Shown: piece after piece, positions 622-16,520 of the stretch
How the letters are laid out: each line of letters opens with the position of its first letter
Numbering within the stretch: position 1 is the stretch's first letter
NCBI GenBank assembly: GCA_947631335.1
Contig: CANRKZ010000002.1
Location: 1 to 57,537, forward strand
Source of the DNA: an uncultured Clostridia bacterium
GTDB lineage: Bacteria; Bacillota; Clostridia; TANB77; CAG-508
Length of the DNA: 57,537 bases
Reading direction: 5' to 3'
The notes under the pieces: model-generated
Seen by the model: the letters and a program-made list of their open reading frames with translations, nothing else
Databases searched by the model: none
Told to the model about the DNA's origin: nothing
Position numbers and translations under genes: made by a program

Positions 622-1266
622 TTAATTCTCAAACATGTTTTTTATTGCCTTTTTTCTAATTCTCTGTATTGCGTTATCTACTGATTTAACTGGAGAGTCT
701 AATTTTTTTGCAATTGTTAAATAACTTTCTCCTTTCAAAAATCTATCTAATACCTGTTTTTCAAATTTACTTAAATTCTTATTAACAGCATTTTCTACTT
801 CTGTATAATATTCTTTTTTCATAATCGTTTCTAAGGGATCCTCTATCACCTTACTATTAAATGTATCAATTAGTTCGACACTATCTTCTTCATTGTTGTC
901 ATAAGCAGCTGTATTCAAAGATAAATAAGAATTTAAAGGCATATGTTTTTGTCTATTCGAACTTTTTATGGCTGTTATTAATTGTCTTTCAATACAAATA
1001 TTGGCAAAAGATTTAAAAGAATTTTGTTTCTCTATCTTAAAGTCTTTAATAGCTTTAAACAAACCAATCATTCCTTCTTGAAAAACATCTTCTTTTTCAG
1101 CACCAATCATAAAATACTTACTCACTTTTATATTAACAAGAGGTTTATATTTTTCTAACAAATAAACTAAAGCATCTTTATCACCTTGTTTAATTTGAGA
1201 TATTGTTTGTTCATCTGTTAAATTACTATATTTATCTGTCGTAAAAAATACATTCTCATTTTGCAT
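622..1266 (-). CDS. sigH: RNA polymerase sporulation sigma factor SigH
   Basis: 214 aa. QEGMIGLFKAIKDFK, RQKHMPLNSY and VKSVDNAIQRIRKK match the SigH pattern as I recall it from Bacillus subtilis. Confidence 0.9.
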   Translation of the reverse strand: MQNENVFFTTDKYSNLTDEQTISQIKQGDKDALVYLLEKYKPLVNIKVSKYFMIGAEKEDVFQEGMIGLFKAIKDFKIEKQNSFKSFANICIERQLITAIKSSNRQKHMPLNSYLSLNTAAYDNNEEDSVELIDTFNSKVIEDPLETIMKKEYYTEVENAVNKNLSKFEKQVLDRFLKGESYLTIAKKLDSPVKSVDNAIQRIRKKAIKNMFEN

Positions 1267-1351: not shown

Positions 1352-3085
1352 TTATTTTATTTCACTTTCAAAGATTTGCCATACATCTTCTGATTCCATA
1401 TCCTTTTTCCAGGAAGCTACACCTGCTAAATCATTTTCTTTTATTAATGATATTTTTGCTTTTAAGGATTCTAAATCTTCTATCCAGATTTGTTTTTTAT
1501 TTTCTCTGTCTGTATATTCTACATAATTTTGTTTTAGGTTATTATCCCATTCTTTTTTGATATCTTCTGGTAATATTTTATTAAGGTTTTTCATATCTAC
1601 CGTATTTCTACTAATAATTTCACCATTTGGATTAGTTGTCCAAACTCTTGTATAAAAAGGAACTGCAAGTATAATTTTTTGTGATTCAATCTCTTCTGTT
1701 TCTAAAAATTTGTTTAAATTTAATTTAATCCAATCATATCCAGCTGTTGTTCCTGCTTTTGTACTAGATTCTCCGTACTCATCATAAGCCATAAATACAA
1801 TGTAATCGGCTACATCTCCTAGTATATGTCGATCAAAGCACAAAGACCATGTTTCCCCTCCGTCAGGTGCTGTAACATCTACAGAAGTTACTAAGCCTAT
1901 TTCTTTTAAACGTGGTGTTAATTCTATGATAAATCTCGAATACATATCTTTATCTTCTTGTTTCATATTTTCAAAATCAACATTAATTCCATCTAATTTA
2001 TATTTTACACATTTATCTACAATACTATCAATTAATTGCTGTCTTAATTCATAGCTATTAATTATATTAGAAGTAATTGATAAACTTTCCGCAGCTGCTT
2101 CTGCATTTGTAAGCATTGGCCAAACTTTATAACCATTTTTGTGGGCCCATTCAATATAAGCTTGTCCTTCATTTCCTATATTTTCTCTTAAAATTTCTTT
2201 CTCATCTAAATAAAAAAATGATGGTGAAACAACATTAATTCCTTGGATTCTTTCTCCACTTCTATCTGGTATCGAATTATAATTTGAAAAGTAATCCCAA
2301 GTCAAATTAACTTTTCCGCTAATTTGTTTTTCCTCTTCCATGTTCTCTCTTACTGTAAATTCATTTTCTAATTGATTTGATTTAATATATCCTACTTTTC
2401 CATTTTCAGTTCTAATTCGTGTACTTCCGTTATTGGTAGATACAACAATTACAGAATCACCTTTTTTTACTCGATCTACTGTTTTAGCAATAAAGTTTGT
2501 AGAAGATTTTACCGCAATATCGGTTGTCACAATTGCTTTTTTTTGTTCTCTTTCCATAGAATCCATTGTCACTACTTTTGTTTTTTCAATATTACAAATT
2601 TCAATATCATAAACATCTTTCATTTCTGAAATTGGTAGATACACAATTCCTTCTTTTTGAATCGCATGTGCATATATATTTTTCTCTGAGCCATTGATTG
2701 TAATTACATTTTTATCAAAACTGATAGTAGCACTTTTCTTTTCATAAGTTGTTATAATTTGATTATTTTCTACATCTTCATAGATATATTTATCAAAAAA
2801 ATTTGCAATATCTGCTTTTGATAGATAAATAATATTATCTTCAATAAGAACTTTGTTTTTTAAATTTGAAGTTACATTTTTATTATTTATTACTAAATTG
2901 GTTATTTTATTGTTATCTAGTATAATAAAATTATTAGCTATAATAGCAATAACTGCTATTACAATTATAGCAACAACAATAAAAAAAACTTTAATTATTG
3001 TTTTCTTTTTCTTATCAATTTCTTGTGGTGTCATACTCTTTTTTATTTTTTCTTTTTTGATTAACTCTCTTCTTCCTTTTCTCAT
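1352..3085 (-). CDS. membrane-anchored glycoside hydrolase family 18 protein (YaaH/YdhD-like, with SH3b-like and stalk domains)
   Basis: N-terminal TM segment. GH18 catalytic motif LDGINVDFE. SD aaggag upstream of the ATG at 3085. Confidence 0.75.
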   Translation of the reverse strand: MRKGRRELIKKEKIKKSMTPQEIDKKKKTIIKVFFIVVAIIVIAVIAIIANNFIILDNNKITNLVINNKNVTSNLKNKVLIEDNIIYLSKADIANFFDKYIYEDVENNQIITTYEKKSATISFDKNVITINGSEKNIYAHAIQKEGIVYLPISEMKDVYDIEICNIEKTKVVTMDSMEREQKKAIVTTDIAVKSSTNFIAKTVDRVKKGDSVIVVSTNNGSTRIRTENGKVGYIKSNQLENEFTVRENMEEEKQISGKVNLTWDYFSNYNSIPDRSGERIQGINVVSPSFFYLDEKEILRENIGNEGQAYIEWAHKNGYKVWPMLTNAEAAAESLSITSNIINSYELRQQLIDSIVDKCVKYKLDGINVDFENMKQEDKDMYSRFIIELTPRLKEIGLVTSVDVTAPDGGETWSLCFDRHILGDVADYIVFMAYDEYGESSTKAGTTAGYDWIKLNLNKFLETEEIESQKIILAVPFYTRVWTTNPNGEIISRNTVDMKNLNKILPEDIKKEWDNNLKQNYVEYTDRENKKQIWIEDLESLKAKISLIKENDLAGVASWKKDMESEDVWQIFESEIK

Positions 3086-7669: not shown

Positions 7670-7905
7670 TTATTTTCTTTCGTTATTACATCCACAGTCA
7701 TTATTATATGGTTTCATATCATTCATATAAAATTTCTTTTCAGCTAGTTTATCTTGAACTCCTCTTAATGCTTCTCCAAATCTTTGGAAGTGTACAACTT
7801 CTCTTTGTCTTAGATATCTTAATGGATCTAACACTTCTGGATTGTCACGGCATAAGTTAATTAATTTTTCATAAGTTGCTCTTGCTTTTTGTTCTGCTGC
7901 AACAT
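7670..7905 (-). pseudogene. cotJC: cotJC 3' segment (split gene; encodes VAAEQKARATYEKLINLCRDNPEVLDPLRYLRQREVVHFQRFGEAL...ERK*)
   Basis: My own translation of the minus strand. It continues the CotJC (Mn-catalase-like) sequence that stops being homologous at 15319. Confidence 0.85.
7899..7905. repeat. left junction core GCAACAT (attL side)
   Basis: The identical 7-mer occurs at 15319-15325, exactly where cotJC homology breaks. Confidence 0.8.
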
Positions 7906-7995
7906 TGATGATACAACAACTTGATTTTTTGTTGATTTTTCAACATTCATTGTTGTACTAGCTTCTTCTATGTTGCAACTAGAATAATACAACAA

Positions 7996-9639
7996 TTAAA
8001 TTTTCCAATGTATCTTAATTGTTTTCTTGTGAGTTTTTGGGTCTTTCTGTCCAACCTCTATATATTCAATTAAGTTATCTACCATTTCTCTTGATAGCTC
8101 AGTTACATTTATATATTGCTTTAATAGTTCTTTCTTTGACTTTATCGTTTCTTGCTCATTTGAAAGTTCTAATAGTTTATCCTTCTTTTGTATCAACTGC
8201 TGTTCTATGGTTTCTTTGTCTTTTCTTAACTCTGTACTTAATGATATAAACTCTTCTTCTGTAATATGTCCATTGACCTTTTGCATAAATAAATCTTTTA
8301 ATGCTTTTGAATATTTGTTTATATTTCCTTCATACTGAGATATTTCTTCTTGCAATTGTTCTTTTTCACTTCTAACTCTCTTTAAAATAATGCTTTCCTC
8401 TAATTGTTCTACATTTAAGTATTGCTTTATTAACAAGTTTAGTTCTCTTAAAACTGTTTTCTTTAATCTTTCCTCTGATATAAAACTGCCTATGCAATCA
8501 CTTTTGTTTACTTGTCTAGTAGGACATCTCAAATATCTGTCATTGTGTGATTTACAAGATTTCATAGTATAACCACAATATTCACATTTGCATTTCTGTG
8601 CAAATACACCTATTTTACCACCTTTATATGGTTTATAGTTGTTGTTTCTTTTACTCTGCACACTATTCCACAAATCAATATCAATTATTGCCTCGTGTGT
8701 TCCTTCAACTATAAACCACTTGTCTTTAGGTCTAGGTTTATTCTTTTTAGTTCTAAAAGATACACTGCCATACTTACCTTGTACCATATTTCCTTTGTAC
8801 ATTTCATTTCCCAATATATCTGATATTGAAAAATATTTCCACTGCGTACCTAATTTGTTTGGTGGAGTCTTATATGCAATGCCTTGTTGTCTTTTATACT
8901 CGGTTGGATTTGGTATCCCTTGATTATTTAGTTCTCGTGCTATGGAAGTTTTTCCCATACCTTGGTTGTATAATGAAAATATCTGTTTTACAACTTTTGA
9001 TGCAACTGGGTCAATGATTAAATGTCCTTTTTTATTAGGGTCTTTTAAATAACCATACAATGGCACACTACCAATATATTCGCCCTTATTTCTTTTAATA
9101 TCAAGTGCTGATTTTATACTATCTGACATATCTTCAATGTACCACTGATTTGTTAGTCCATTGATTTGAATAGATTTTCTATTTCCTTTTAGTGCTGTAT
9201 CTGTATTATCAACTAAACCAATAAACCTAACATTCCATTCCTTAAATTTTTCAAGTACATACTGCTCAACCACAATACTATCTCTTGTAAATCTATTTAG
9301 ACTTTTGCATAGAACAATATCAACTTCTCCACGCTCTGCTAACTCTAATACTTTATTATAATTGGGTCTATCTTGATTCATTCCTGCCCAGTCCTCATCT
9401 ACAAATGTACCTACTATGTCCCAATCCTCATTGCTGTTGGCATACTCTGTCAACATTATTTTTTGATTTTTAATACTCTCGCTTTCATCCTCCTTATTTT
9501 TCTTATTCCTATCCTCTTGTGATAATCTGCAATAAATTGCTACTCTGTACCTTTTCTTTTCCGCAACTGTTTTGATTTCTTCTATTTTATTATTAGAAAT
9601 AGCAGTATATGGATTTTTCAAAGTATTTGTTTCATTCAT
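7996..9639 (-). CDS. large serine recombinase (SpoIVCA/phage-integrase type)
   Basis: N-terminal resolvase catalytic domain (VAIYCRLSQED...SIKNQK), recombinase domain, Cys-rich zinc ribbon (CEYCG...CPTR), C-terminal coiled coil. ATG at 9639 after aggagg. Confidence 0.9.
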   Translation of the reverse strand: MNETNTLKNPYTAISNNKIEEIKTVAEKKRYRVAIYCRLSQEDRNKKNKEDESESIKNQKIMLTEYANSNEDWDIVGTFVDEDWAGMNQDRPNYNKVLELAERGEVDIVLCKSLNRFTRDSIVVEQYVLEKFKEWNVRFIGLVDNTDTALKGNRKSIQINGLTNQWYIEDMSDSIKSALDIKRNKGEYIGSVPLYGYLKDPNKKGHLIIDPVASKVVKQIFSLYNQGMGKTSIARELNNQGIPNPTEYKRQQGIAYKTPPNKLGTQWKYFSISDILGNEMYKGNMVQGKYGSVSFRTKKNKPRPKDKWFIVEGTHEAIIDIDLWNSVQSKRNNNYKPYKGGKIGVFAQKCKCEYCGYTMKSCKSHNDRYLRCPTRQVNKSDCIGSFISEERLKKTVLRELNLLIKQYLNVEQLEESIILKRVRSEKEQLQEEISQYEGNINKYSKALKDLFMQKVNGHITEEEFISLSTELRKDKETIEQQLIQKKDKLLELSNEQETIKSKKELLKQYINVTELSREMVDNLIEYIEVGQKDPKTHKKTIKIHWKI

Positions 9640-9739
9640 TTTATATTTCCTCCTATCAGAAAACAATAAAATGAACCAATATTATCTGCTACATCTTATA
9701 ACATATAATATTGGTTCTTGTAAACTGCTCTCTCTAATT

Positions 9740-9850
9740 TTATTTATTTAACATTAAATTTACTACAACTTGCCAAGCCTCATTAAAAGCATGACTTCTA
9801 TCTGTTTCACTCTCTGAAACAAACACATTCTCACATACTATTGTATTCAT
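9740..9850 (-). CDS. 36-aa hypothetical protein upstream of the recombinase gene
   Basis: ATG at 9850 preceded by gaggtg. MNTIVCENVFVSESETDRSHAFNEAWQVVVNLMLNK. Too short for the ORF track. Confidence 0.3.
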   Translation of the reverse strand: MNTIVCENVFVSESETDRSHAFNEAWQVVVNLMLNK

Positions 9851-10321
9851 CTTCTATACACCTCGTTTAGTAAAATCCTATTCAATAGACAAAACACTTA
9901 TGCTTTGTTATTTATAATAAATGTGTTTTATTTATCTATTGATAGCTCTGTTGCACTTTGCTAGGTGTAAATAATCATTAAACTACTGCAATATAGCAGT
10001 ACATAGGAATTTCACCTCTCGGCTATCTGCCCAGTTGCCCCATTTCGTGCGATGTCTTACTTATTAAAAGTAAAATTATTACTATAAAATAAGTTTACAC
10101 TCAAGTTTTGGGTGCAAATGTATTTACTATTTTCTACCTTATAAACTAATAGTAAATAAGTTTAATGATTCTATTTAATTTTCAATGTACTGCAATTCCT
10201 TAATTTAAAGGCATTGTTATAAGTTCTTTAGACTTAATAATATGTTTGATTGCAATCAAGGAAAATTATCCTTCTCATTAATATTTTACTGTGGTTGATT
10301 TGGAAACTAATAGAAATGAAA

Positions 10322-10355
10322 AGTAGTACTAAAATCGGTCGTTTTTGGTACTACT
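10322..10355. repeat. 13-bp-stem hairpin (agtagtactaaaa / tttttggtactact)
   Basis: Read directly. One G-T pair, 7-nt loop. Confidence 0.5.
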
Positions 10356-10367
10356 AAAAAGACTACT

Positions 10368-10414
10368 CTTGATATATCAACACCGTATTTGCTTAAAGTG
10401 TTTAATATATCAAG
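10368..10414. repeat. perfect 10-bp inverted repeat cttgatatat ... atatatcaag (27-nt spacer) upstream of the resolvase gene
   Basis: Read directly. Confidence 0.5.
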
Positions 10415-10524
10415 TTTTACTATGATAATTTTAATGTCTTTAAGAGTTTCAAAAATTATTACCAGAATGATTGACTTCTGGTACACAATTGCGGTACCAT
10501 GTCTCCAGTAAGGAGGTAGGTATT

Positions 10525-11079
10525 ATGTTGATAGGTTATAAAAGATGCTCAACACAAGAGCAAAAATTAGATAGACAAACTGATATATTAAGTGAATATG
10601 GTGTTAGTAAAATCTTTGAGGAAAAGATAACTGGAACTAAAAGAGATAGACAAGAATTAAATAAAATGCTAGAAATGTTAAGAGAAGGAGATATTATAGT
10701 TGTTACTGATTTAACACGATTATCACGCTCTACAAAAGATTTATTTGAAATTGTAGAAACTATCAATAATAAAGGGGCTGAAATCAAAAGTCTAAAAGAA
10801 AGTTGGCTTGATACAACTACGCCTCAAGGCAAATTACTATTTACAATATTTGCTGGACTTGCTCAATTTGAAAGGGACTTAATCGCAGATAGAACTAAGG
10901 AAGGACTTGCTTCTGCAAAGAAAAGAGGTAAGACACTTGGTCGTCCTTGCAAATTTCAAGATAAGAAAGAAACTATACTTAATATGTATAATTCAAATGA
11001 TTATTCTATAAGTGATATTATTACTGCAACTGGAATATCTAAAACAAGTTTATATAGATTAGTAAATGCAAATATATAA
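10525..11079 (+). CDS. small serine recombinase (resolvase/invertase family)
   Basis: MLIGYKRCSTQEQKLDRQ catalytic-Ser N-terminus, LSRSTKDL, C-terminal HTH. ATG at 10525 after aaggagg. Confidence 0.9.
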   Translation: MLIGYKRCSTQEQKLDRQTDILSEYGVSKIFEEKITGTKRDRQELNKMLEMLREGDIIVVTDLTRLSRSTKDLFEIVETINNKGAEIKSLKESWLDTTTPQGKLLFTIFAGLAQFERDLIADRTKEGLASAKKRGKTLGRPCKFQDKKETILNMYNSNDYSISDIITATGISKTSLYRLVNANI

Positions 11080-11086
11080 AGAAAAC

Positions 11087-11121
11087 GGTGTCTGATAATT
11101 GTATTACAAATATCAGACACC
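11087..11121. terminator. bidirectional terminator between convergent genes
   Basis: ggtgtctgata ... tatcagacacc perfect 11-bp stem. Confidence 0.6.
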
Positions 11122-11128
11122 ATTGTTG

Positions 11129-11620
11129 TTAAATGGCAAGAATCAGCAAATTACCACCAGCAAAAGACCTACTGAAGCCGAAACGAACATGCTTAGGCTT
11201 GAACATTTCCTTGATTGAATCGATTACGAAGCCATATTCAGGTGCGGCACATATAATAAGATTGGAATCATCCCAATATCCGATTATGCCAGCTCCTTTT
11301 GCTCCTTGTATCATACTGTCATCCAATCTGACATAGTTACCAAACTTTATGGCTCTTACACCGTCTGCTTCAACAAGTTCAAGTGGAACTTTGTTAATTG
11401 TTCCATTTTTGTCTGTGGCTCCAAATGCTGTTGCCATAGGCTTGATGCCGAAATCTTGCTCTCCACAATATGCATAGGAAAGGCAAACACCTTTTAATGT
11501 ACCTTTGCATTCTTCTGGAGATGGTTTCTTTCCGTCATCATACCGGTATAGCTTGAATTCGATGGTTCTGTCATCTTCAGTAAGAAGATATGTTTCCGGT
11601 GATACATGACTAAAATCCAT
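11129..11620 (-). CDS. hypothetical protein (element cargo, 163 aa)
   Basis: ATG at 11620 after aggagg. No family recognised. Contains one of only two sense CGG codons in the window (11543-11545). Confidence 0.6.
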   Translation of the reverse strand: MDFSHVSPETYLLTEDDRTIEFKLYRYDDGKKPSPEECKGTLKGVCLSYAYCGEQDFGIKPMATAFGATDKNGTINKVPLELVEADGVRAIKFGNYVRLDDSMIQGAKGAGIIGYWDDSNLIICAAPEYGFVIDSIKEMFKPKHVRFGFSRSFAGGNLLILAI

Positions 11621-11745
11621 AATGATACCTCCTAACAATTGTTTTGGAAATTTAACAACTTGCTATCTTATTTAATTCGCATAGCTACGAATGATAATTT
11701 TATTTTACCATATTTTACATAAAATATCAATAGAATGGGGGAATT

Positions 11746-12081
11746 CTACTTGACATTGCTTTCTACATTCAATTTAGTTGCTATGATATAACCAAATAAG
11801 AATAATTGCTGTTCTTCTTCATAAGACATTTGATTTGTAATTTCCCAGTACTGTTCAAAAAGTTTCTGTTGTTCTTCTGTAAATGTAGATTCCATTTTGT
11901 CTGATATCCTTAATTGCTTAGTTCTTAACTTTTCATATTCCAAACCTGGAGTATATAATTCTTCTTCAAAATAACTAAATAATGTTTTAAGCAATTTCAT
12001 ATTACTAAAATCTATATTCTTCAAAGTATCTGTATCAAATATGCTGTCAAAATGCCTTAATATATCTTTTGCATTTTCCAT
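11746..12081 (-). CDS. hypothetical protein (111 aa; resembles small helical proteins of clostridial mobile elements)
   Basis: ORF with SD gaggaggtg. Architecture similarity only, from memory. Confidence 0.55.
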   Translation of the reverse strand: MENAKDILRHFDSIFDTDTLKNIDFSNMKLLKTLFSYFEEELYTPGLEYEKLRTKQLRISDKMESTFTEEQQKLFEQYWEITNQMSYEEEQQLFLFGYIIATKLNVESNVK

Positions 12082-12164
12082 TATAACACCTCCTCAAACC
12101 ATTCTAATTGATGGTTTCTAGCTTACCGCTGATGTTTTAATATGTCAATTTATTTTAAAAATAT

Positions 12165-12806
12165 CTATAAGCTATCAAAACCAAACCTTTTAAATAGTTT
12201 CTTTAACTTATTATAATCAGCTTTTCCTTTTGGCGTTTCAAGATTTCTAGGGTAGTAACATTGTCTTTCTTCATTGAATATCCCATCATTTAAGTAGTGG
12301 TATCTTGATAGTTCTAAGATAGTAGTGTTGTTTCTACTATTGGATTCAACTCCTCGAATGCTTATTGAAACACCATATTTACTTACACCATCTAATGCTG
12401 GTATTGATGTTGTTTCAATATCTGTATCTAACCACTTTTCTATCTCTTGACCATCTTCATTATATGCTTTTACAATGTAGCCGTTATCTTTTAGTACTAT
12501 CCAACTAGGGGTGTAACCTGTGATTCTATATGCTACAAGATTTGCTGAAGGTCTTTTTATAAAATCATAGTACATTACTTGGCATCTTCTATGTATATCG
12601 CTTGCTATTTTAACTGCTATGTCCGTTCTGTTAACGACAGCAATCATATTAGTGTCTGTTATTGCTAGTATATACAGTCTTAACCTTTCTGCTACTGTTT
12701 TTATATAGTCTATATCGTTTGCAGTACAATTATCAATTACAGTTACGGGAGCATTTTCCTTACCCTTGCTATAGCAAATTAGTTCGTCTAATGTTATTGT
12801 TTCCAC
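12165..12806 (-). CDS. hypothetical protein (213 aa, element cargo)
   Basis: ORF with SD aaggaggtg. No motif recognised. Confidence 0.55.
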   Translation of the reverse strand: METITLDELICYSKGKENAPVTVIDNCTANDIDYIKTVAERLRLYILAITDTNMIAVVNRTDIAVKIASDIHRRCQVMYYDFIKRPSANLVAYRITGYTPSWIVLKDNGYIVKAYNEDGQEIEKWLDTDIETTSIPALDGVSKYGVSISIRGVESNSRNNTTILELSRYHYLNDGIFNEERQCYYPRNLETPKGKADYNKLKKLFKRFGFDSL

Positions 12807-12989
12807 TTGTACACCTCCTTACTTATTTTTAGACATCACAAAAAGACTTGCTTTTAAACAGTTGAAATCCTTTTATTGTAGCTAGGATTCTACCGCCTAC
12901 TAATTTATTTTGCAAGTCCTTTTTAGTAAGTTCTATATAAGTTTTAAATTTTGTCAAGTATTTTTATATTCTATAAGTTTTAAATTTCT

Positions 12990-13220
12990 TCAAGCCTTTT
13001 TATATTCTTTCTTAAAGTATGGTTCTAGCAAGTAATTAACATTGCATAACATTGTTTTTGATTTGTCTAATAAGATTTTGACATATTTGAAATCAGTATA
13101 ATTTACATCAATTATAAACTCGCTATATAGTGAAAGTTGCTGACTGATTTTTTTAATATCAAATATATCTCTAGTTATACTGCTATCTCTTATATCTTCT
13201 TTTACTTCAACAATCTTCAT
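12990..13220 (-). CDS. hypothetical protein (76 aa)
   Basis: ATG at 13220 after aaggag. Confidence 0.45.
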   Translation of the reverse strand: MKIVEVKEDIRDSSITRDIFDIKKISQQLSLYSEFIIDVNYTDFKYVKILLDKSKTMLCNVNYLLEPYFKKEYKKA

Positions 13221-13277
13221 TATATTCACTCCTTGCATTATACTTTTTCTTACTCATTAATATTTTACCTAATTGTA

Positions 13278-15032
13278 TTAAAAAGTCTTATTATCTAATC
13301 TTCTTCTGCTAATATAAACTTCTTCTTTTGGAGGGTCAGGGATTGGTAGATTGTCAATATCAAAATAGTTTTCTTTTGCGGCTTTTAATATTAGGTTATA
13401 TAAACTCTCTAAACTATCAAATTTTGAACTATTATCTAAAGTGATTGGATTTATCCCTATTCTTTCAAGCATACGAATATATTTATCAACTGTAGCACTA
13501 CACCATGTTTTATGCTTACAATTATTACAAACCTTTGTAATTTCTTTGTTGTGACTTGCAGTAACTTGATTTAAATCATACTTATGCAAAGCAACTAAAA
13601 ACTGTTTTAATTTCGTTTTCCAATTTTTAGTATGATTAGATTTATCTATAATCTCTTTAGCTTTTTTTATATCATAGTTCTTATCTAAGTCAACATTCAT
13701 AACTGATATGCCCAGTGATTCTAAATCCTTTCTATATTTATTAACAGTTGCACCACACCAAGTATAATGCTCCTTTGCATTTTTATTTTTGGTTACACCA
13801 CTTATACCGTATCTGTTAACTTCAGCTATAAATTTCTTCAAATGAACTTTATCATTATTACTTAAACATTCTTTCTGATTTATCAATTTCTTTGCTGTCT
13901 TTAATTTATAGTATGTACCTGTATACAAAAAATCTTTTAAGAAATTAAAATAGTATGTATACATAGCTTCTTTACTCCAATAGGCATACAAATTTTTATC
14001 TAGCACTAACTTATCTTTAGTATCTGTTATAAGTTCTTTTACATTAGTTTGATATTCTTTACTTATTTCAGTCTGTCCCAATTCCTCAAGCATTAGGTTA
14101 ATCGTACCTATTTCTATTTCTAAATCATTAATATTTATGTTTTGCAGATTCTTTGGATACTTTATTTTCATACTTTCATATATTGATTCATTCACTAATT
14201 GATTTCTTTTTCTATCTATTCTTTCTTTTCTTGCTATTAGATTTTCTCTTTTGTCTATCTCTTTTAACAACTGATTTACTTCTTTTGTTGTGTCGTTTGC
14301 ATATTTATCAATGATTGCTGTACTTTGCCTTTTAATTAAGGTTTTTGTATTTTGTACTTCAATTCTAAATATATTCTTAAAGTCTTCATAAAAAGGAGGA
14401 TGTTTTTCTCTATATTCACTAAAACTGATTCCAGTTTGCTTATTTAATGTTTCATATTCTTTATAATACTTTTCTTTCTCATTATAGTATTTATCGTATA
14501 TGTTAATTGTTTTCTGTCCACTTTTAGATGTAAGATATATTGAAGTTTCGTATTCGTTTATTCTTTTGATATGTTTATATGTACTTTTGCTTTTATCTAA
14601 AAGATTTAGATATTCATACATTGTGTCATAATCTAAAAATAAATCAACACAAAAGTCAATTCGGTGTAAAAGTAATTGTGAATATGTTATTCCTAATGTT
14701 TCTCTAACTGTTTCGTTTATTATATTAATATATTTATCTCTGTCACTTAAAAAAATATCCATCTGTTGCAACACTCTATGTACATTTGCAATTAAAACTA
14801 CACATCTAAATTTGTCATAGTATTGAAATAGAATATTCTTATATTCGAATTCTATTCCATTGCTTACTATTTTTTCACTATCTAAAACTTGCGTACTACT
14901 ATATTTCCTATCGTATTTACCATATTCATTTATTATGTATTGAAACCTTCTATATACAATACCTAATTTTCGTATTCTATCTAAGTCTAACTGTATAATA
15001 CCATAGACTATAAAATTGATACTATCTATCAT
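13278..15032 (-). CDS. Rep_trans-like replication initiator with duplicated C-terminal modules
   Basis: IDSINFIV, HRIDFCVD, IYLTSKSGQKTINIYDKY and FRIEVQ follow the spacing of rolling-circle Rep_trans initiators. Two paralogous ~60-aa C-terminal repeats (…WCGATVNKYRKDLESLGI… / …WCSATVDKYIRMLERIGI…). Confidence 0.55.
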   Translation of the reverse strand: MIDSINFIVYGIIQLDLDRIRKLGIVYRRFQYIINEYGKYDRKYSSTQVLDSEKIVSNGIEFEYKNILFQYYDKFRCVVLIANVHRVLQQMDIFLSDRDKYINIINETVRETLGITYSQLLLHRIDFCVDLFLDYDTMYEYLNLLDKSKSTYKHIKRINEYETSIYLTSKSGQKTINIYDKYYNEKEKYYKEYETLNKQTGISFSEYREKHPPFYEDFKNIFRIEVQNTKTLIKRQSTAIIDKYANDTTKEVNQLLKEIDKRENLIARKERIDRKRNQLVNESIYESMKIKYPKNLQNININDLEIEIGTINLMLEELGQTEISKEYQTNVKELITDTKDKLVLDKNLYAYWSKEAMYTYYFNFLKDFLYTGTYYKLKTAKKLINQKECLSNNDKVHLKKFIAEVNRYGISGVTKNKNAKEHYTWCGATVNKYRKDLESLGISVMNVDLDKNYDIKKAKEIIDKSNHTKNWKTKLKQFLVALHKYDLNQVTASHNKEITKVCNNCKHKTWCSATVDKYIRMLERIGINPITLDNSSKFDSLESLYNLILKAAKENYFDIDNLPIPDPPKEEVYISRRRLDNKTF

Positions 15033-15318
15033 TATTATCCCTCCTAAAATCTTAAATTTCTTTAATCATTACAAATATTGATATGAATACATTTGTAGGC
15101 TATCTATATATAATTTTTTTTATTAAATATACATATATTATCTATCTGCTCTTATTCTTTTTAATAGTTTTAAGTTACTTAAAAAAAATAGGACTTGCTT
15201 CTATTTAACAAGTTCTATTTTACTTATTCTTCTTTTAACTTCACATACTAATTGTATGGTCTAATCTTAAATATTGGTTCATTCTATTGTATTTTACTTA
15301 TGTTGTACTATCAAAGGG

Positions 15319-15325
15319 GCAACAT
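15319..15325. repeat. right junction core GCAACAT (attR side)
   Basis: Identical to 7899-7905. Confidence 0.8.
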
Positions 15326-15731
15326 CTGCTGCTAAGTCTTCTTGTAAGTTTGCAATCGGATCTCCTTTACAAGCAATATATGCTGCTGTAAATGGAACAC
15401 CTGCTGCTGATGATGGATATACATCTACGCCATGATCTGTATAATATGGTGCTAAACCCGCCTTTTCGATTTCTTCAATTGATGCACCATCAGTAAGTTG
15501 ATGCACAATAGTTCCAACCATTTCTAAGTGAGCCAATTCTTCTGTACCAATATCATTTAAAATTGCTTTTGATTTTTGATCTGGCATACCAAATCTTTGA
15601 GATAAATATCTTAAAGAAGCGGCAAGCTCTCCATCAGGTCCACCATATTGAGATATAATTACCTTAGCTAATTTTGGATCTGTGCATTTAATATTGATTG
15701 GATATTGTAACATTTTGTTATAAGTCCACAT
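15319..15731 (-). pseudogene. cotJC: cotJC 5' segment (MWTYNKMLQYP...QEDLAADV)
   Basis: Mn-catalase/CotJC motifs GGPDGELAA and GTEELAHLEM. The ATG at 15731 overlaps the cotJB stop (TAATG). Homology ends at the GCAACAT core, followed by 9 junk codons and a stop at 15294. Confidence 0.9.
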
Positions 15732-16051
15732 TAATAATTCCCCCTTTCCCATGGCCATGGCATCTCAAGCCATCTCCACTTATTACAAGGGTAATTAATG
15801 GTAAGAGGTCCATATACTTTTTGGTATTTATCTTTTAATTCTTTTACTTGTTTACAGTATTTATTATGCAAACAAAGTGCTTTTTGATCTTCTGGGTGAG
15901 TGTCTAAATACAATGCAAGTTCATTAATAGCAAAATCATATGATCTAATTTGATTTATCATTTCTCTTCTTAAGTCACAATCTACTTTATTTTCTTCTTC
16001 ACACTCAGTATTGCAATTACATCCACAATTTCTATTTTCTTCTACTGACAT
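15731..16051 (-). CDS. cotJB: spore coat protein CotJB
   Basis: YDFAINELALYLDTHPEDQKAL...YGPL matches the CotJB signature. Confidence 0.85.
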   Translation of the reverse strand: MSVEENRNCGCNCNTECEEENKVDCDLRREMINQIRSYDFAINELALYLDTHPEDQKALCLHNKYCKQVKELKDKYQKVYGPLTINYPCNKWRWLEMPWPWERGNY

Positions 16052-16404
16052 TGATTACACCCCTTCCCAATTTCATTTGTTTTTCTTATATAATTCATTT
16101 CTTCCATTGATTGACCTGGTACATAAGGACTAACCAATTCTGGGAATATAGTTCCCATTTTTAATCCAACAGATGGCTTAAAAGTTTTATCCATATATTG
16201 ATAAGGTACATAACTTTGTGCTAACATTGGATTTTCTGGAAACACATTATATTCCTCATCAAAGCCACATTCACAGCTATCCATATAATCTTCATATGAA
16301 ACAACATCGTTACATTGATTTTCTAAGATATCAGATTGCATTTCACAAGAATTATTTTGGTAGCTATTGTTCATGCAGTAACATTTTCTATGATTTCTAA
16401 ACAT
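16042..16404 (-). CDS. cotJA: spore coat-associated protein CotJA
   Basis: YVPYQ...GLKMGTIFPEL..PY signature. ATG at 16404 after aaggagg. Confidence 0.8.
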   Translation of the reverse strand: MFRNHRKCYCMNNSYQNNSCEMQSDILENQCNDVVSYEDYMDSCECGFDEEYNVFPENPMLAQSYVPYQYMDKTFKPSVGLKMGTIFPELVSPYVPGQSMEEMNYIRKTNEIGKGCNQCQ

Positions 16405-16520
16405 ATCTTTCTTTCCTCCTTTTACTTTCATTATATGATTTTATTCGACAAATGCTACTACATTTTGTATATACATCATAAAAACACCTGTATCTAAATA
16501 CAGGTGTTTTTAATCTTTAA

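Follow-up and report, generated by a model that had tools for sequence, protein, structure and literature searches.

Sporulation genes that are split by an intervening element and rebuilt by a large serine recombinase (LSR) are well known from skin, SPbeta, vfbin, vrin, gin and yin. For skin, SPbeta and gin, excision by the LSR under the control of a recombination directionality factor (RDF) rebuilds the sporulation gene. In both skin (in sigK; recombinase SpoIVCA in B. subtilis, CD1231 with the RDF CD1234 in C. difficile) and SPbeta (in spsM; SprA with SprB), the LSR gene lies near one end of the element and precise excision restores the open reading frame (ORF), and both the C. difficile skin element and SPbeta combine a constitutive recombinase with a small, sporulation-controlled RDF. 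Skin and SPbeta are prophages or prophage remnants of 14-134 kb, and prophage-like gene content is also seen in vfbin, vrin and yin, whereas gin, which splits gerE in B. cereus and encodes the LSR GirC and the RDF GirX (Abe et al. 2017, PMC5595907), lacks it. Here, we add a member to this group: a non-phage element that splits the spore-coat gene cotJC in an uncultured Clostridia bacterium (GTDB lineage TANB77; CAG-508), found in positions 1 to 57,537 of contig CANRKZ010000002.1 (assembly GCA_947631335.1). We refer to this whole stretch of 57,537 nucleotides as the window and give all positions within it.

The cotJC element resembles gin in being non-phage and LSR-bearing, in residing in a mother-cell sporulation gene and in carrying additional serine recombinase genes. 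It differs from gin in its target, in its host class (Clostridia rather than Bacilli) and in its DUF4368/TnpX-like recombinase. Also unlike gin, it has a small ORF directly upstream of the LSR gene, with a conserved hairpin and promoter between the two, and a Rep_trans-like cargo gene. Excision and RDF activity have been demonstrated for gin and are predicted for the element described here. With skin and SPbeta, it shares the position of the LSR near one end and a predicted precise excision that rebuilds the ORF, and we propose for it the same division between a constitutive recombinase and a regulated small RDF; at 7.4 kb and without phage genes, however, it does not share their prophage character. 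The targets differ as well, in that sporulation requires sigK while CotJC is part of the coat and cells may tolerate its loss.

The transposons Tn5397 and Tn4451 offer a second comparison, as their recombinases TndX and TnpX share with the LSR here a DUF4368 C-terminus, a conserved protein-coding target and, in the case of TndX, a central GA dinucleotide. This GA is always present in TndX target sites, and a conserved coding domain serves as the target (PMC4430133). TnpX and a C. difficile conjugative-transposon recombinase are the nearest relatives with solved structures, and some relatives of the LSR lie in elements with a relaxase or a type IV secretion system (T4SS) coupling protein. Tn5397 and Tn4451 bear genes for resistance and conjugation, and neither is known to reconstitute a developmental gene, whereas the recombinase clade described below is locked to one site in cotJC. 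Moreover, TndX is reported to need no RDF, whereas the element here encodes a candidate for one. In style, the element is thus closest to the non-phage gin and to recombinase modules of the Tn5397/Tn4451 type.

An in-silico survey, Abe et al. 2013 (Mol Microbiol 90:415), is said in a preprint that cites it to name cotJC as an integration target. That preprint (bioRxiv 10.1101/2021.11.22.469490) cites the survey as listing cotJC among the targets of phage or transposon insertion, and on this account cotJC interruption has been noted before. The literature searched yielded no description of cotJC elements at either the experimental or the family level.

The window has the gene content of ordinary chromosome (MutS, MiaB-like, AsnB and P-type ATPase genes), with a G+C content of 27.7% overall and 28.7% within the element. 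Its minus strand carries a cotJA-cotJB-cotJC operon in which cotJC is in two parts. The features of the operon, the recombination sites and the LSR gene are as follows.

16042..16404, minus strand: cotJA (Pfam PF11007; the 120-amino-acid gene call is also made in identical metagenome contigs)
15731..16051, minus strand: cotJB (Pfam PF12652, E 2.7e-27)
15325..15731, minus strand: cotJC 5' segment, codons 1-135 plus the GA of codon 136 (Pfam Mn_catalase, E 6e-40, and alignment with intact homologues)
15325..15332, minus strand: attL core GCAGCAGA from the comparison of attL and attR, with the inferred crossover GA at 15326-15325
15295..15324, minus strand: P' arm, the element side of attL, TGTTGCCCCTTTGATAGTACAACATAAGTA, conserved in the window and in L003, L005, L006, L007 and L009
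7996..9639, minus strand: LSR gene, 547 amino acids from a conserved ATG, with a longer call to 9666 (Pfam Resolvase, Recombinase, Zn_ribbon_recom and DUF4368)
7897..7926, minus strand: P arm, the element side of attR, AATCAAGTTGTTGTATCATCAATGTTGCAG, complementary to the P' arm about the GA at 18/26 positions
7893..7900, minus strand: attR core GCAGCAGA from the same comparison, with GA at 7894-7893
7670..7892, minus strand: cotJC 3' segment, …EQKARATYEKL…EVVHFQRFGEAL… to the stop (alignment with intact homologues)

Labels such as L003 designate related loci from the collections described below. The sequence-only reading had proposed that a serine-recombinase element of 7,420 bp splits cotJC and that deletion of 7899-15318 at a shared GCAACAT would rejoin it. 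The split and the recombinase are both there; the missing CotJC C-terminus is indeed encoded about 7.4 kb away on the same strand (about 7900-7670), and the recombinase gene ends ~100 bp from the left junction, close to the earlier figure of ~90 bp. The size and the join had to be corrected. Although the GCAACAT join is in frame, it yields QEDLAADVAAEQK, and we rejected it because the additional AADV is found in no intact CotJC: all of the aligned intact homologues (8/8, 87-95% identical) read QEDLAAEQK, and the intact cotJC DNA of L001 and L002 confirms this register, leaving the four-residue insertion with no counterpart. Alignment also ends the CotJC homology of the 5' part at ...QEDLAA and not, as had been thought, at ...AADV. 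The reading that a precise deletion restores the gene is supported by many related loci, with the GCAACAT junction off by 12 bp.

On the minus strand, attL reads …GACTTAGCAGCAGA up to the junction and TGTTGCCCC… beyond it, and attR correspondingly reads …CAATGTTGCAGCAGA and ACAAAAAGC…. Since their shared core is GCAGCAGA (15332-15325 and 7900-7893), the element measures 7,432 bp. Joining the two sites in silico at this core gives ...QEDLAAEQKARA..., in the register of the intact homologues, and the joined product aligns end to end with intact CotJC of ~205 amino acids (E ~1e-125, 91-95% identity). The 5' segment covers positions 1-151 of the 284 in the Mn_catalase profile, and its ORF (a Mn-catalase/CotJC fragment at 15294-15758) continues into ten element codons (DVAPLIVQHK) before a stop at 15294. 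The rebuilt attB junction of the window reads …GAAGACTTAGCAGCAGAACAAAAAGC… and the rebuilt attP junction …TCATCAATGTTGCAGCAGATGTTGCCCCTTTGA….

The symmetry of these sites points to where the crossover occurs. We rebuilt attP for six elements (those of the window, L006, L009, L010, L011 and L007/L021), and in 6/6 the flanking sequence is complementary about the GA at 18-19 of 26 positions, as against 2-11 about other centres; attB is asymmetric (2-4/26). The P' arm forms the right half of this attP near-palindrome. Across the rebuilt elements, the shared core varies from 4 to 9 bp, and attL/attR identity shrinks in L010 and L011 to CAGA (15328-15325 in the window), the minimal family-wide core, within which GA is kept. 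GA is thus the final two bases of the shared core, a non-palindromic dinucleotide and the symmetry centre of attP, from which we infer a crossover at GA within GCAGCAGA. The same layout is seen in gin, where the shared core is 9 bp (8 bp here): in both, the predicted cleavage dinucleotide stands at the 3' end of the core and in the middle of an imperfect inverted repeat of the element att site, with an asymmetric attB. By these alignments, the element is inserted in codon 136 of cotJC (window 7893-15326), between DLAA and EQKAR in a conserved stretch of the Mn-catalase fold, and recombination at GA would free a circle and leave cotJC in the register of uninterrupted homologues.

The premature stop of the 5' ORF and the lack of a start codon in the 3' piece could also be read as signs of decaying pseudogene fragments or of an assembly artefact, with no functional rejoining. 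This is hardly credible given the exact att architecture, the recurrence of the junction in independent assemblies and in more than 20 loci, and the absence of any frameshift in either piece relative to the intact proteins, to which both are 91-95% identical.

The interrupted gene is predicted to be a mother-cell-expressed sporulation gene. The likely start of cotJA is the ATG at 16404, 3' of the ribosome-binding site (RBS) AAAGGAGG, and a CATATAAT box lies upstream at 16437-16430. In C. difficile, CATATAAT is the canonical mother-cell -10 box, and cotJ-type operons are expressed in the mother cell under sigma-K (PMC3789822). Work citing the original reference describes B. subtilis cotJ as transcribed in the mother cell under sigma-E. 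It is from these two species, together with the box, that the expression in the present host is deduced. Between the gene for ribosomal protein L32 and cotJA, a palindrome at 16479-16512 has a 15-bp stem with T/A runs on both sides and is likely a bidirectional terminator that isolates the cotJ promoter region.

The LSR contains the catalytic motif YCRLS and matches PF00239, PF07508 and PF13408, each above its cut-off, while DUF4368 (PF14287) reaches 25.4 bits against a cut-off of 25. Its match in PHROG is integrase (E 2e-101), and the top PDB sequence matches, restricted to the catalytic domain and of modest identity, are 3g13 (a C. difficile conjugative-transposon recombinase) and 2mhc (TnpX). 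By its domains and matches, the enzyme is TnpX/TndX-like. It is under purifying selection across the family (dN/dS of 0.13-0.16). Exact-protein look-ups from both start codons returned no match, and IMG/VR holds no close relative, the best being 22% identical.

Related loci were gathered from three collections: one genome per GTDB species, metagenomes from the Joint Genome Institute (JGI) and elsewhere, and contigs encoding relatives of the small ORF. Every locus with an LSR at least 45% identical to that of the window also holds a cotJC fragment broken at residue ~133-136, and at more than 20 loci, spanning different species and collections, the junction falls at the same codon. LSRs at ~30% identity are not beside cotJC and occur as adjacent tandem pairs (L015-L019, L032-L037); these pairs recall CcrA/CcrB and mark the boundary of the cotJC-specific clade. 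Judged from this sampling of sequences, a broad LSR clade is dedicated to one site in cotJC. Two orientations occur within it. The LSR is co-directional with cotJC and beside its 3' part in class A (the window, L006-L012, L021, L027, L030 and L040-L045) and converges on the 5' part in class B (L013, L014, L028, L029, L031 and L046-L048), as a flipped central dinucleotide would produce. Carriers occur in metagenome-assembled genomes (MAGs) named 'Lapin', presumably from rabbit, in MAGs from the gut of mouse and chicken, and in metagenomes of the human gut, and the elements measure 2,339, 4,541, 6,589, 7,432 and 9,911 bp, with ~3.1 kb in L041.

The split allele of the window recurs in independent metagenome contigs: the junction is present in L003 and L005, and L004 breaks off within the 5' part; no intact cotJC allele of the window's species was found among 5.8 billion proteins. 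Several contigs end near element borders: L003 stops 254 bp past attL, L004 inside the cotJC 5' part and L007/L021 inside the 3' end of the LSR gene. Such ends could reflect branching of the assembly graph, caused by a mixture of integrated and excised forms or by strain variation. A strong match to the skipping-rope RNA (RF02924, 70.9 bits) lies at L012:7982-8059 on the plus strand, a few kb from the cotJC-targeting LSR.

Both halves of cotJC are open and conserved in all carriers (dN/dS of 0.04-0.17), and no carrier has a frameshift or stop in either half, even where the gene is in three pieces. In minimal elements of 2.3-3.1 kb, nothing but the small ORF and the LSR gene is intact, and the cargo survives as remnants. 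The 2.3-kb element of L010 holds nothing of note besides the small ORF and the LSR gene, and the minimal human-gut element of L041 has a full-length LSR and small ORF, with a resolvase and a DUF6809 gene present only as fragments. L040, L041 and L042, from human-gut metagenomes and GCA_964307875.1, have the same flanking genes, and their 3.1-kb residue-136 element is constant, with both the resolvase (residues 109-200) and DUF6809 surviving in truncated form. These remnants suggest reductive evolution from an element like that of the window.

The small ORF belongs to a compact module upstream of the LSR gene, in a region where a further RNA motif was matched.

9740..9850, minus strand: conserved 36-amino-acid ORF (MNTIVCENVFVSESETDRSHAFNEAWQVVVNLMLNK) with the RBS GAGGTG, kept upstream of the family LSRs
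9665..9724, minus strand: hairpin (stems 9717-9705 and 9685-9673) followed by a T-rich tract, folding-energy z = -5.5
10001..10079, minus strand: borderline pemK RNA motif (RF02913), 34.7 bits against a gathering score of 34.8, E 0.0024

An ORF of 36-50 amino acids with a good RBS precedes every family LSR for which upstream sequence can be read, including LSRs of 45-50% identity. Its product follows the consensus …I-x-C-x-N-[IV]-F…F-[NT]-x-x-W-x-x-[VI]-[VI]-N… and forms 72 protein clusters in public data, one variant being indexed in 145 blocks and another in 367. The AlphaFold2 (AF2) model of the 36-amino-acid protein has a pLDDT of 91.6 and consists of an extended N-terminus and one helix (residues 15-35). 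The RDF of gin, GirX, is similarly very small (42 amino acids), without a motif (PMC5595907) and of a kind that often goes unannotated, and by analogy we consider the 36-amino-acid protein a candidate RDF.

The hairpin folds in 12/13 members, with stem sequences that differ in the distant ones; these are single-sequence folds, and covariation was judged by eye and is unscored. In a MAFFT alignment of the spacer between the small ORF and the LSR gene, the stems do not line up, and RNAalifold therefore found no consensus there. A sigma-A-like promoter for the LSR gene overlaps the hairpin (TTTACA at 9724-9719, N17, TTATAA). TTTACA lies at the 5' base of the stem and is followed, after 17-18 nt, by a TATAAT-like hexamer within the loop, an arrangement kept in distant members. 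This layout suggests that the hairpin may act as a terminator insulating the small ORF from the LSR promoter, giving two separately controlled units. Upstream of the module, the pemK-motif region forms a G+C-richer island ~150 nt from the small ORF that is common only to L006 (96.5% overall identity). The 2.3-kb element of L010 has a relatively G+C-rich 74-amino-acid ORF between attL and the small ORF (L010:9454-9678, plus strand); in an alignment of seven upstream regions, this part matched neither the window nor any of the five remaining elements.

We favour, with a probability of about 0.58, a reading in which excision at GA by the LSR, with the 36-amino-acid protein assisting or licensing it, takes place in the mother cell during sporulation, such that cotJC is restored there and the spore genome keeps the element. 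The LSR would be made from its own sigma-A-like promoter, and the 36-amino-acid protein, insulated by the hairpin, would serve as a regulated directionality or activation factor whose expression in sporulating cells lets the LSR remove the element from the mother-cell chromosome. Full-length CotJC would then be produced alongside CotJA and CotJB for use in the spore coat, while the forespore copy would stay interrupted and pass the element on. The mother-cell specificity of excision is proposed by analogy with the known systems. The excised circle may replicate through a Rep_trans-like protein encoded by the element and be resolved by its small resolvase, which would also offer a route to horizontal spread.

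Several observations weigh against developmental excision. Synonymous divergence between the window and L006 is 0.10 for the LSR gene and 0.57-0.65 for cotJC, and between the window and L010 it is 0.26 and ~1.4, respectively; over 3.4 kb, the elements of the window and L006 are 96.5% identical, against 82% for their cotJ operons. These dS values and blocks of DNA identity rule out that element and host diverged together by vertical descent, and since the LSR dS is far below the cotJC dS and element identity exceeds operon identity, the sequence comparison indicates that the insertions are recent, horizontally spread and younger than their hosts. It follows that the intact cotJC halves may reflect youth and not selection. 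Recent spread would equally fit an ordinary mobile element that uses cotJC as a landing site, and elements larger than 10 kb carry a T4SS coupling protein or relaxase (NikA is also found among the relatives), as in ordinary integrative and conjugative or mobilizable elements (ICEs and IMEs).

These findings lend weight to an ordinary integrative element (a rolling-circle plasmid, IME or ICE module) for which the conserved cotJC stretch is a safe and widely available attB. Excision would then serve transfer only, and cotJC would be inactivated at a tolerable cost. The Rep_trans-like gene agrees with this, as do the targeting of a conserved coding domain by TndX (Tn5397 inserts in Fic-domain DNA) and a report that CotJC-type catalases of C. 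difficile are redundant or dispensable for coat formation. We nonetheless consider it unlikely, if far from negligible: elements of 2.3-3.1 kb without transfer or replication genes have decayed cargo yet retain an intact LSR and small ORF that are under purifying selection, the cotJC halves are free of frameshifts and stops in every carrier, and the interrupted allele is the only one seen for the window's species.

Other points against developmental excision concern its regulation. TndX is reported to suffice for both integration and excision, so that an RDF may be unnecessary. Upstream of the small ORF, we find only a weak CATA-type -10 match to a sporulation-type promoter (CATAAGTG). A generic promoter scan gave 55 sites where 58 were expected, that is, no enrichment in this AT-rich DNA, and because promoter-like hexamers occur at chance level, it is only the conservation of their position that carries weight. 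As a general trigger, read-through from the cotJ promoter is ruled out, since the class B module lies on the opposite strand and points against cotJ. Finally, no relevant attP junction of an excised circle was found in IMG/VR and none in JGI metagenomes; two attP matches in IMG/VR were dismissed as chance, lying inside high-GC phage structural genes without a recombinase.

The constitutive look of the LSR promoter and the ability of TndX-type enzymes to run in both directions without a partner would also suit a reversible or stochastic ON/OFF switch that creates population heterogeneity in a spore-coat catalase, without strict developmental rearrangement. There is precedent in yin, which is excised at all time points and heterogeneously across the population (PMC10747680). 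We think such a switch improbable here, as no excised or empty-site sequence of the window's species was found in assemblies or in the protein database, and the separate, insulated transcription unit of the small ORF suggests regulated control.

The remaining genes of the element all run in the cotJ direction except that of the small serine recombinase.

13278..15032, minus strand: 584-amino-acid orphan cargo protein (AF2 model and Foldseek)
12990..13238, minus strand: 82-amino-acid orphan ORF, also in L005 and weakly in L006
12165..12806, minus strand: 213-amino-acid orphan ORF with homologues in the L006 and L009 elements
11746..12081, minus strand: 111-amino-acid DUF6809 protein (Pfam PF20648, E 4.6e-7), with a remnant in the human-gut L041
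11129..11638, minus strand: 169-amino-acid orphan ORF without a family match
10471..11079, plus strand: small serine recombinase of the resolvase/invertase type, Resolvase plus HTH_7 (Pfam E 1.5e-44; PHROG DNA invertase)

The 584-amino-acid protein has no match in Pfam, PHROG, NCBIfam, PADLOC, or the plasmid and phage sets. Its AF2 model (pLDDT 83) has repeated helical modules in the C-terminal part, and the top two Foldseek matches in the PDB are the RepDE/rolling-circle initiators 4cwe and 4cwc of S. aureus, which are weak but specific (probability 0.99-1.0, E ~1e-3, TM 0.37). N, I, Y, D and K of INIYDK, the tyrosine included, are invariant, as are R, D and D of HRIDFCVD. From the model, we tentatively regard the N-terminal part as a putative rolling-circle replication initiator of the Rep_trans type. 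The small resolvase is 100% identical to a protein in L006 and persists as a truncated remnant in L040-L042. PHROG matches among the element genes are limited to the two recombinases, by which a phage origin is ruled out, and PADLOC finds no defence genes. The likeness to skin and SPbeta drawn in the sequence-only reading thus holds for the architecture, in which an LSR-bearing element splits a sporulation gene that precise deletion restores, but does not extend to phage genes. Given a Rep-like protein, a resolvase and neither phage nor defence genes, the element looks like an integrative element of the rolling-circle-plasmid or IME type and not a prophage. Elsewhere in the window, a sigma-70-family factor is encoded at 622-1266 (minus strand) and, at 1352-3085 (minus strand), a GH18 protein that also has a Cu_amine_oxidN1 domain and may be a spore cortex hydrolase of the YaaH/SleL kind; both neighbours are consistent with a spore-forming host.

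Insertions in cotJC are not confined to codon 136. In L011 and L042, a second, unrelated LSR element (541-amino-acid recombinase, ~27% identical) lies near residue 117-122, with the shared core ACAGCATCATA in L011. The gene is in three pieces in both loci (L011:1-9000, in the GTDB representative CANRQI010000038.1, and L042:3131-11096), where the residue-136 element is also present. A third recurrent break falls near residue 62-64, at the E-x-x-H metal-binding motif (L013:5760-7720, L040:7494-7718 and L045:34-255). A 537-amino-acid LSR ends exactly at this break in L013, and L040 carries sortase and HTH_36 cargo upstream of it. One human-gut species has three coexisting haplotypes (L040-L042) with one or two cotJC insertions each. 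From these loci, we tentatively put forward a wider proposal that we regard as possible though somewhat doubtful: that cotJC in gut Clostridia is a landing pad for unrelated LSR elements with at least three recurrent sites (~62, 117-122 and 136); that in some strains two independent elements would both need to excise before one coat gene is rebuilt, a combinatorial developmental DNA rearrangement; and that the 36-50-amino-acid proteins are a previously undescribed directionality-factor family paired with a conserved terminator/promoter switch.

Beyond the known systems, interest attaches to a clade of LSRs locked to one site, to the conserved module of small ORF and hairpin, to the series of decaying elements and to genes split more than once. 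The recombinase, its candidate RDF and the defined att sites with a central GA are a possible compact, directional recombination tool, and annotators of gut MAGs should not label split cotJC genes as pseudogenes. The natural series from conjugation- or replication-competent elements to 2.3-kb remnants with only the recombinase and the 36-amino-acid ORF is a good system for studying how mobile elements are domesticated into switches. If excision is developmental, cotJC would join sigK, spsM, spoVFB, spoVR, gerE and yabG as a gene rebuilt by programmed DNA rearrangement, and its hosts would be gut Clostridia, abundant and for the most part uncultured, that live in rabbits, mice, chickens and humans.

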